Assembly (NCBI GenBank): GCA_039621445.1
Contig: CP154954.1
Coordinates: 9,364,634 to 9,428,633 of the forward strand
Origin: Euglena gracilis
Taxonomy: Eukaryota
Length of the DNA: 64,000 nt
Reading direction: 5' to 3'
The notes beneath the pieces are model-generated. The model saw nothing but the letters and a program-made list of their open reading frames with translations. It was not told the origin of the DNA and made no database searches. Every line of letters begins with the position of its first letter. Position 1 is the stretch's first letter. Position numbers and translations under genes: made by a program. Below, in pieces: positions 50,101-53,100 of this stretch.

Positions 50101-53100
50101 TGGCAGGGGAGGGGGGTCCAGTCCAGGGGAGGGGGGGTGGCCGTACATCCTCCTTGTCTCGAACCCTGGGGGGGTTCAAACAAATGCAACTGTAAAAACA
50201 AATTAATAAACAGAGATTGTCGAATACCTTCAAAAAAAATCAGTCCCTAAACTGCACAGCCGAAGCAAAAAAAAGCTGCGTTCTTGTTGGGTGCGGGAGG
50301 CACGAATCCAAAAACAGGAGGGGGAAACCAAAATGTGAAAAAAAAAAAATGAAACCGGCACGCCAGAGCCCGGCCGGGGTGCACGATGAGAGGAAGACGA
50401 AGCCGTGGCACAGGTCCCCCTGCTGGAGCAGCGCCGCGGACTGGTGCTCGATCACATCCAGAGGTTTTTTTAAGACCGGGGGGAGCCGGGGGGGACCGCC
50501 CCATCCCCCCCCACCCCGGGGGGGGGGTGGGCCCCGGGGGGGGGGGGGTCCCGGGGACCCACAAAAAAAAATGGCCGAAAAATCGCGAAAAGTGCTAAAA
50601 ATAGCACTTTTTCGGCGCCTTTGGCGCCGAAAAAGTATATCCCACCCCCCTCCGGGGGGGGCCCCCCCCCCCCGGGGGGGCGCGGCCGGGCCCACCCCCC
50701 CTACCCGCCCCCGGGGGTCCACGTCTAAAAAAAACCCTGATCACATCCACCGTCTGCTTCGTGGGGGCGTACGCGGCGAGGCTGGATTGGCCAGCCCCCG
50801 GGGTGGGGAAGGGGAGAGGGTCGACTGCCCCAGAGGGTGTCTTTGTTGCCGTGCCCCACCCAGAGGGGGGGGGGGCAGACTGCCTGGTTGTGGGCCAAGA
50901 AGTACCCAGAATGTGCTCTTCTGAGGCCTCCGGTGCCGAAGTTGCCTTGGCCGGGTGCCCAGGCACTCTTGGCCATGAGCCCTACCCCCCCCCCCGGGGG
51001 TCGGCAGGGTGCCTTGAAATGCTTGGTAACTGGGCAGGCACCCCCCCAGGGTGAGGTCAACCTTGTTTTCACAGTCCCTGTTCCTGTTCCAGACCCTTTT
51101 TGGTCATGGTGCTCAGTCCCTCAGCCCCGCCCACTTTCTCCCCACTTCCCGGTTCATGCTGTACTGTGGGACAATACAGTTTTGCCAAACAATACTTGAC
51201 AATACAGGTTTTGCCCCAAAGGGGGGGGGTCGGCGCCACCTGTCAAAAATGCAGCCTGGACACGATGCTGTTCCAGGTGGCGGTCCGCTCACCACACCAG
51301 GGCTCGGGGCAGCGCCACTTCGGGAAGTTGGTGTTGAAGTCGCTGGGGTGGATGGGGGGGGGAGGGCGGGGCGGGGCAGGCCAACATGATCCACCGGGCG
51401 GGAAGGAGGTCGCACCGAGATTTCAACGTTTTCGATATGTACTTTCGGCAGTGTTGGGTGGTGGCCATTTGGTCTCCTCATCATTCAACAATATATATTT
51501 GCAGAAAGCACGTGTGGACTTCAATGGACTGTGTGTGTGTGTGTGTGTGTGTGTGTGTGTGTGTGTGTGTGTGTGTGTGTGTGTGTGTGTGTGTGTGCGC
51601 GCGCGCGCGCGTGTGTGTGTGCGTGTGTGTGTGTGTGTGTGTGTGTGTGTGTGTGTGTGTGGGTGTGTGCGTGCGTGCGTGCGTGCGTGCGTGCGTGCGT
51701 GCGTGCGTGCGTGCGTGCGTGCGTGCGTGCGTGCGTGCGTGCGTGCGTGCGTGCGTGCGTGCGTGCGTGCGTCTGTGTGTGTGTGTGTGTGTGTGTGTGT
51801 GTGTGTGTGTGTGTGTGTGTGTGTGTGTGTGTGTGTGTGTGTGTGTGTGTGTGTGTGTGTGTGTGTGAACCTATGGTTGTGGGTGGTGTATGGTCCCTTC
51901 TCGCCATAGGCCGTACAGCATCGGCCATGCAACACACCCGCGTTCCTTGTGGTACGCCCCGAGGAAGTCAGAGTTGGCCCCAAACAGGTCGTTGAGCAGC
52001 AGCGGGATCGGCACCGCGGGAGTGGTGAAGTGATACTCCGAGATGTGGCCATCCCAAGCAGGCTGCTTTTGACCGGGGGGGGGGGGGTACGCGTAACGTG
52101 GATCCTCGAAAAACGCGATACAAAAACTCACAAAAAAACACCCAAATTATTGCCAAAATTAAAAAAAAATTGTTCCTCCCACCCTCCTCCAGCCAGACCT
52201 TTGCGAACACCCTCTCTCTGCCCAACGACTCATCATCTCTGTCCTCCCACCGGGGCGGTTGTCGTTGGACAAAGGATATTTCGGTCAAAAAAGGTCCACG
52301 GACGTGGATTAAGAAAAATGTCAAACTTTTCTTTTGGGGTCTGCGAAAGTTTTTTGCATTTGTGGCAAGTAATTTGTCCAAAAAAGTGTCCCAAATGGCA
52401 TTTTTTTGGCTTATTTTGGGTGGTAAAAAATTCATCCACAACGAAAATCAGGCAAAATCTCCGAAAAGGTGTCCTCCAACCAGGGGGGTTGCTACACATT
52501 GGGGAAGAACCTGGGGGTCCATTGAGTGGGATCTCCATCAGTTGGGGAAAAAAAGCTACCAGCTGAACCCGGGGGGGGGGGGGGGGCGACTTGAAAAAAA
52601 AGACTGTCCCTTTGGACTTTGTGCCAATTTGCGGAAAATGATTCCAGCGTGGTTTTGGGCAAATTTTTGTTCAGAAGAAATTCCAAAAAAAAACAAAAAT
52701 CGGTGTTTGGGCAGGTTTGGAGGTTAAAAGAAATTTCTGGCGGTTCGCATCAGTAACCAACAAAAAAATTGCACTAGCCGGGGGCTTGCACCCCCACCAG
52801 GCTGTTTTTTACCAACCCCGGGGGGGGGGGAGGGGGGGGTCCGGAGTGCCTGTGAGTGCCTGCCCAGGCAGGCACTACCCCCCCCCCGGGGGGGGTCGGA
52901 TTTCGGCCTGTGCCCGGGCACATTCCTTTGAAAATAGGCCATTTTTGGCTCGCCGGCGCCTTCGGCGCCGGGGTTGTGCTAGGGCACTTTTGGTCGTGTG
53001 CCCCCCCCCCCAGGGGGGGGGTCGGCTTGGGAGTGCCTTGGGGTGCCTGCCCAGGCAGGCACCCCCCCCCCGGGGTGGGGTCGGCACCCGACTAAAATAC

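Follow-up and report, generated by a model that had tools for sequence, protein, structure and literature searches.

A stretch of 64,000 nucleotides (nt) of the Euglena gracilis genome (contig CP154954.1, positions 9,364,634 to 9,428,633; here called the window) contains an expressed gene on the minus strand in which a short inverted-repeat element, element A, lies in coding sequence between two copies of an 8-base-pair (bp) repeat. The observations support the reading that a nonconventional intron of this gene, I3, consists of a miniature transposable element with inverted repeats (MITE) together with one copy of its 8-bp target-site duplication (TSD). According to the explanation favored here, which taken as a whole is judged to be quite probable, element A would be a non-autonomous DNA transposon with CAG...CTG ends that inserted into a coding exon and in doing so duplicated 8 bp of its target (ATCACATC). 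In the pre-mRNA the paired inverted ends would draw the two junctions together, and the nonconventional splicing machinery would cut 3 nt before CAG and 5 nt after CTG, ahead of a purine, and would therefore remove 8 nt in addition to the element. Of the duplicated target, one copy would contribute its first 5 nt and the other its last 3 nt, so that the coding sequence present before the insertion would be rebuilt exactly.

The origin and removal of nonconventional introns have been in question since the 1990s, and a MITE origin is still treated as a hypothesis in the publications cited below. The locus described here is a clean, RNA-verified case in which a recognisable mobile element with an intact 8-bp duplication in coding sequence is removed as element plus 8 nt.

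Element A and its removal from the transcript

Element A and the two copies of the duplication are arranged as follows.

50459-50739: element A, 281 bp, non-coding, with inverted ends CAGAGGTTTTTTTA / TAAAAAAAACCCTG
50451-50458: left TSD copy ATCACATC, 8 bp, within an 11-nt exact repeat at 50450-50460
50740-50747: right TSD copy ATCACATC, 8 bp, within an 11-nt exact repeat at 50739-50749

Element A starts with CAGAGGTTTTTTTAAG at its 5' side and ends with CTAAAAAAAACCCTG at its 3' side, so that its termini read CAG...CTG, and 12 of the 14 terminal positions are complementary. Its arms are G/C-rich and its core is a GGCGCC...GGCGCC palindrome. The exact direct repeat around the element is the 11-nt sequence GATCACATCCA. 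Its three matches beyond the duplication, one base ahead of the target and two behind it, happen to be identical to the final base and the opening two bases of element A. A first-pass annotation made from the sequence alone had described a 281-bp CAG...CTG element between perfect 8-bp repeats. The sequence is as described and the 8-bp copies of ATCACATC are present, but the exact repeat is 11 nt long rather than 8. The sequence could also be parsed as a shorter GAGG...CCCT element within an 11-bp duplication, a reading that is rejected because the GAGG and CCCT ends are non-complementary and a second copy of the element (copy B, below) possesses the terminal AG and CTG as well.

Excision was followed by placing reads and contigs on positions 47340-51520. 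These came from two transcriptome-like contig sets (X15 and X18, for which the RNA label is presumed), raw reads of a true RNA-seq run (X21) and the contigs of a DNA run (X1). Four joints were recovered, all of which are carried by one X15 contig (3881 nt, depth 165) and one X18 contig (3965 nt, depth 49.3), and none of which was found in any X1 contig.

49096>49411: joint skipping 314 nt, slidable by 6 nt, 2 X21 reads
49488>50376: joint skipping 887 nt, slidable by 4 nt, 2 X21 reads
50449>50739: joint skipping 289 nt, slidable by 11 nt, 4 X21 reads
50770>51260: joint skipping 489 nt, slidable by 2 nt, 4 X21 reads

With 289 nt skipped at the joint 50449>50739, precisely element A plus 8 nt is missing from the mRNA. 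Excision of 50454-50742, which the annotation had proposed to check by RNA-seq mapping, is borne out by the presence of the 289-nt joint in X15, X18 and X21 and its absence from X1, and the interval itself is one of 12 registers that yield the same mRNA.

Placement of the gene on the minus strand is indicated by its two outer introns, which are GT..AG on that strand, and by the nonconventional intron I4, whose 2-nt sliding range fits the published splicing code (given below) in the minus sense only. The conventional introns and the two exons that border I3, the latter given in the leftmost register, are listed here.

46989-48999, minus strand: conventional intron I0, GT..AG, placed by loose ends of RNA contigs; holds element E (below) and a (GT)n array
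51343-51937, minus strand: conventional intron I5, GT..AG after a 1-base left slide; holds a (TG)n array
50376-50449, minus strand: exon downstream of I3 in the gene sense, third-position GC 23/24
50739-50770, minus strand: exon upstream of I3 in the gene sense, third-position GC 10/11

The slide at I5 is possible with C at both 51343 and 51938, the borders having been read by hand, and loose ends of RNA contigs set the neighbouring exons at ...46988 and 51939.... The spliced minus-strand frame has no stops in 179 codons, and GC at the three codon positions is 0.61/0.45/0.89. Third-position GC is 85-96% in each of the 7 exon pieces in one global frame, including the 32-nt and 74-nt exons beside element A, while the four nonconventional introns display no codon periodicity. 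Element A is assigned to coding sequence because the spliced frame is stop-free and third-position GC of the exons is this high, and there is good evidence both for an interruption of coding sequence by the element and for preservation of the frame when the 289 nt are removed. Its location inside coding sequence, as claimed in the annotation, is thus supported by frame and codon-position evidence and not by homology. A 40-residue query over the exon ending at 51940 matched no homologue of the host protein, and six single-exon pieces compared with Pfam gave no matches at E values up to 10.

Element A is a mobile element: a second copy in the window matches it exactly from end to end.

1348-1605, minus strand: copy B of element A, with TAG...CTG ends; alignment of 280 columns at 83.6% identity

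The likeness of copy B to element A begins at TAG and ends at CTG, which are the exact termini of element A, and in the same 8-nt register the flanks of copy B (GCCACCAC / GCCAGAAC) are identical at 6 of 8 positions. Summed word depth in the DNA run X1 (at least 80% likeness) is ~1.1-1.3 million over element A versus ~60-100 in its unique flanks; this measure is not a copy number and is inflated by G/C runs, and it fits a high-copy family. A motif search of the window found only A and B, metagenome contigs scanned with a 23-nt core of the family yielded no copies, and Rfam gave no matches.

In the region 50420-50699, word depth over element A reaches 12,171 in X15 and 17,041 in X18 in the first bin; the depth of the host transcript contig, for comparison, is 165 and 49, respectively. 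About 100 X21 reads per strand cover the same region, and the A family is abundant in the RNA pools. The signal may come from other loci, from excised introns that are stable or from DNA carried over into the pools.

The nonconventional introns and the length of the flank repeats

The published code for euglenid nonconventional introns is 5'-N3CDG...CH'GN5-6, followed by R in the next exon (Nomura et al. 2025, PMC12501133), and knock-in experiments have established a strict 3-nt spacer at the 5' side and a 5-nt spacer at the 3' side, for which 6 nt is tolerated (PMC12501133). The four introns defined by the joints are given below in the minus sense, with the first base of the following exon.

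50454-50742, minus strand: I3, 289 nt, GAT-CAG ... CTG-GATGT, then G; register k=4 of 12; fits the code
49100-49413, minus strand: I1, 314 nt, AGC-CGG ... CCG-GGGGC, then A; fits the code
49489-50375, minus strand: I2, 887 nt, GGC-CGG ... CCG-TCCCC, then A; element at 49494-50372, flanks 4/8; fits the code
50773-51261, minus strand: I4, 489 nt, GTC-CAG ... CTC-GCCGC, then G; element at 50778-51258, flanks 4/8

The published register at I3, N3-CAG...CTG-N5 before a purine (minus sense, 50742 down to 50454), removes exactly element A plus 8 nt, and it is from this register that we infer the exact cut positions. GT/GC..AG borders occur in no compatible register of I1-I4; in the case of I3, 12 registers were checked on both strands. 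The predicted RNA fold of I3 and its flanks has an energy of -200.7 kcal/mol (z = -5.5, with none of 100 shuffles as stable), and its terminal stem pairs the ends of the intron. I3 therefore combines the features by which nonconventional introns are recognized, which are removal at the RNA level, N3-CDG and CH'G-N5 borders followed by a purine, and a fold that joins the ends. The defining feature of a spliceosomal introner, GT/GC...AG sites supplied by the element and its duplication, is found in no register of I3.

When the CDG/CH'G pair is taken as the ends of an element, the intron length defined by RNA leaves exactly 8 nt in all four introns. Identity between the two 8-nt flanks is 7/8 for I1, 4/8 for I2, 8/8 for I3 and 4/8 for I4. 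With I3 excluded, as it was the basis on which the locus was chosen, the flanks of I1, I2 and I4 agree at 15 of 24 positions against a background of 53/192 (27.6%; P = 3.7e-4). The element within I1 spans 49105-49410, possesses 11 perfectly complementary terminal bases and has the flanks GCTGCCCC / GCTGCCAC. Judging from their inverted ends and partly kept repeats, I1, I2 and I4 may also derive from transposons whose duplications have decayed.

Many contigs start or end at 49126-49173, inside I1, where loose ends occur in 167 + 86 X1 records and 36 + 9 X15 records. These breaks suggest a short high-copy segment nested in I1.

Whether 8 nt is a special length was examined by scanning the window blindly for inverted repeats paired at distances of 60-2500 nt, with a satellite-like block at 14000-37500 excluded. 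One version of the scan took CDG..CHG pairs with at least 10/14 complementary positions (672 pairs), and the other took any termini with at least 11/14 (3285 pairs). Among the 672 CDG..CHG pairs, a flank-repeat register (t) of 8 nt gave three repeats of at least 7/8, of which two were perfect (element A and a further element, C) and one was 7/8 (I1); registers t=7 and t=9-13 gave no perfect or one-mismatch repeat. At t=8, the corresponding figures per shuffle in 20 Markov controls were 0.0 perfect repeats and 0.55 near-perfect ones. The ATCACATC repeat that flanks element A exceeds chance, because 2 of 672 pairs were perfect versus none per shuffle in these controls. In the scan of 3285 pairs, perfect repeats of t of at least 7 occurred exclusively at t=8 (elements A, C and E, plus a microsatellite artefact at 4605-5174). 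Chance matches are common in short registers, with 3 perfect repeats at t=5 and none at t=6 in the CDG..CHG scan and 4 at t=6 in the all-termini scan. A cruder scan, which was seeded with exact 6-nt matches and did not leave out the 14-37.5 kb satellite, returned 771 mostly spurious pairs with no clear peak; its single perfect repeat at t=8 belonged to element C, and it missed element A because the ends of that element are imperfect and T-rich. At the scale of the window, the scoring of flank identity by length that the annotation had called for thus finds an excess at t=8 and none at t=7 or 9-13.

The two further elements that entered these counts are as follows.

52798-53106: element C, 309 bp, CAGGCTGTTTTTTA ... 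TAAAATACAGCCTG, 13/14 complementary, CAG...CTG ends
48119-48577: element E, 459 bp, CATACATCTCTTTAAG ... CTTAGAGAGATGTATG, 13/14 complementary, end motifs CATACATC...GATGTATG

Element C has perfect 8-bp flanks (ACCCCCAC) and is located upstream of the mapped exons of the host gene, with a partial relative at 61362-61539; a core sequence, GGCGCCTTCGGCGCC, is common to elements A, B and C. Element E, which lies inside the conventional intron I0, has CAT...ATG ends and perfect 8-bp flanks (CTCACCCC), and the X1 word depth over it is 10^5-10^6. Element E may represent a different family with the same duplication length. The remaining repeat pairs in the window have ends too rich in G/C runs or too degraded for a duplication to be read. 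The inverted-repeat elements of this window, small as their number is, make 8-bp duplications only.

Competing explanations for the geometry

It is plausible that the correspondence seen at I3 is a general rule, in which the 3-nt and 5-nt spacers together represent an 8-bp TSD, and everything that the window shows supports such a rule, in few cases. A broader proposal is that the two spacers sum to the 8-bp TSD of the resident CA(G)...(C)TG MITEs of this genome and thereby constitute a system that tolerates transposons and generates introns; this proposal is tentative and should be held with slightly more doubt than confidence. If it is true, it would explain why the 3/5 spacing is asymmetric, why slidable junctions are abundant and how very many transposon-derived introns can be tolerated. 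Splicing would scarlessly delete from the mRNA any new insertion of such an element into a transcribed exon, whichever way the element is oriented, provided that position 6 of the duplication is a purine. Between CTG and CAG, the excised circle would hold the second 8-mer in full, and the slidable junctions that most euglenid introns have would be decaying 8-bp duplications. The hypothesis leads to a simple genome-wide prediction, namely that flank identity steps up at exactly 8 nt and decays with the age of the intron.

Several points weigh against these readings. The evidence base consists of four nonconventional introns and four further element copies from one 64-kb window. Twelve cut registers give identical mRNA at I3, and the cuts cannot be located from RNA because of the 11-nt repeat. 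The comparison with DNA, empty-site alleles included, is based on the single run X1, and the coding status is based on frame and third-position GC, with no homologue found by single-exon queries. The flanks of I2 and I4 keep only 4/8 identity, the closing triplet of I4 is CTC rather than CTG (one mismatch to the code), and DNA depth at the ends of I1, I2 and I4 is that of single-copy sequence, so that none of the three can be recognised at present as belonging to a repeat family. The CAT...ATG ends of element E fall outside the CDG code. In addition, the published geometry is not strictly 8, as a 6-nt 3' spacer is tolerated and 38.8% of E. agilis nonconventional introns are off-code (PMC12501133).

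It is a real though somewhat doubtful possibility that the match in geometry arose from a filter rather than from design. The machinery may measure 3 + 5 nt from the closing helix for structural reasons of its own, and only insertions that have CDG...CH'G ends and 8-bp TSDs would then give in-frame mRNA and persist in exons. A 3' spacer of 5 or 6 nt, together with the importance of the purine at the exon start, suggests more than a fixed ruler, and the same off-code fraction in E. agilis points in this direction (PMC12501133), as does element E, which has an 8-bp duplication and CAT...ATG ends and sits in an intron rather than in an exon. On the other hand, all perfect flank repeats of at least 7 nt in the window are in the 8-nt register, and the resident elements match the splicing geometry. 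A filter and a tuned machinery predict the same sequence patterns and differ only in evolutionary direction, which lies beyond one window. The claim in the annotation that the splice geometry is the geometry of an 8-bp TSD is accordingly borne out at I3 and in the 8-nt register of the window, but a tuning of the machinery to that length is unsupported.

A separate question is which transposon superfamily supplied the elements. The hAT superfamily has the end consensus YARNG and the target consensus nTnnnnAn. The ends of elements A (CAGAG and CAGGG), B (TAGGG and CAGGG) and C (CAGGC at both ends) agree with YARNG, the comparison being with the consensus and not with a library, and the 8-bp duplication is kept at 8/8, 6/8 and 8/8 positions, respectively. 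For the target consensus, the T of position 2 or the A of position 7 is found in 4 of 10 half-sites of A, B, C, E and I1 (hand count). No transposase was detected when 10 of the 32 open reading frames (ORFs) of at least 170 amino acids in the window were scanned against Pfam, which gave no matches and no hAT domain. We infer a superfamily for element A from its duplication length and its CAGNG/TAGNG-type ends, and the hAT label is unproven. Superfamilies other than hAT also make 8-bp duplications. It is possible, though unlikely, that the elements truly transposed but belong to Merlin, to a P-like group or to an undescribed superfamily with 8-bp TSDs, in which case the geometry would stand. 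The agreement with the target consensus at only 4 of 10 half-sites and the lack of a hAT domain among the scanned ORFs are consistent with this alternative, and the CAT...ATG ends of element E presumably resemble P-element ends more than hAT ends. Two Merlin families with 8-bp TSDs are known in E. gracilis, and Merlin elements have 5'-GG ends and duplications of 8-9 bp (PMC8101967). Elements A, B and C, however, start with CAG or TAG and end with CTG, so that duplication length alone agrees with Merlin, whereas CAGAG, CAGGG and TAGGG fit YARNG. The description of element A as 'hAT-like' in the annotation is thus favored by its 8-bp TSD and YARNG-type ends, while the absence of a transposase among the 10 ORFs and the 8-bp duplications of Merlin count against it.

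It is highly improbable that double-strand-break repair (microhomology plus fill-in) during intron gain, and not a transposase, produced the flank repeat. Such a reading has been given to an 8-nt direct repeat found where one E. agilis strain newly gained a gapC intron, and euglenids are noted for strong break-rejoining (PMC4770533). The insert at I3, however, is a member of a repeat family, and its likeness to copy B ends precisely where its inverted termini do; junctions formed by repair would vary in length, and three unrelated inverted-repeat elements in 64 kb all have perfect repeats of 8, with none at 7 or 9-13.

Known systems and other features of the window

A MITE-like origin of nonconventional introns was proposed in 2013/14 (PMC3935182) and has been repeated since (PMC6221363, PMC11170887, PMC12621601, PMC12501133). 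A 2024 review terms CAG and CTG at +4..+6 and -8..-6 a terminal inverted repeat and describes the junction repeats as TSD-like (PMC11282704). In E. agilis, 84.4% of introns are slidable, and it has been suggested that the machinery may mitigate transposon insertions (PMC12501133). Nonconventional introns are excised as full-length circular RNA, later than conventional ones (PMC11282704, PMC6221363). The relevant passages of the cited intron papers name no TSD length, superfamily or element family, and the origin was still termed 'unclear' in 2025. No statement that 3 + 5 equals an 8-bp or hAT duplication was found in the literature searched, subscription journals and supplements lying outside the search. 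The annotation had left it unclear how much of its rule was already in print; a MITE origin, the 3/5 spacers and the idea of tolerance have been published, but '3+5 = 8-bp TSD' was not found.

I3 closely resembles the euglenid nonconventional introns described previously, which lack a GT/GC-AG register and have CAG at +4..+6, CTG at -8..-6 and a purine at the start of the next exon (PMC12501133, PMC3935182, PMC4770533). Like I3, the introns described by Milanowski et al. (2014/2016) possess a stable end stem and a slidable short repeat and occur with GT-AG introns in the same gene (PMC3935182, PMC4770533). I3 differs from the published euglenid cases in that it visibly belongs to a repeat family, of which another copy lies elsewhere, and has its 8-bp duplication intact.

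Introners of Micromonas and Aureococcus (Huff, Zilberman and Roy 2016) share with element A an inverted-end DNA transposon that lies in an exon with a TSD and whose removal with one copy of the duplicate restores the mRNA (PMC11282704). Unlike element A, they carry or co-opt GT/GC and AG sites, are removed by the spliceosome and have a 3-nt duplication in the example described (PMC11282704). I3, in contrast, has no GT-AG register and has 3/5 spacing around a CAG:CTG helix.

MITEs of the hAT superfamily are similar to element A in being short, non-coding and multi-copy, with an 8-bp duplication and ends of the CAGNG/TAGNG type. Giroux et al. in 1994 reportedly described Ds as an intron in maize. 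Element A is unlike hAT MITEs in that the target-site consensus is not clearly matched and the 10 scanned ORFs of the window include no transposase. The Merlin elements of E. gracilis are DNA transposons with an 8-bp duplication, as element A would be, but their ends begin with GG as opposed to the CAG/TAG...CTG of A, B and C (PMC8101967).

The block excluded from the scans, 14000-37500, is a large set of mutually similar repeats with up to 39 self-matches per position and recurring ORF-like units, and it resembles a satellite or tandem array. Long (TG)n and (TGTG/GTGG)n arrays occur at 53325-55398 (the largest, ~2 kb), 47101-47328, 51530-51867 and 63554-64000, and two TG arrays lie within conventional introns of the host gene. 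On the plus strand at 6334-6744, a piece of an ORF seems by eye to be a genuine exon from a gene for an NAD(P)-binding (NmrA/SDR-like) protein.

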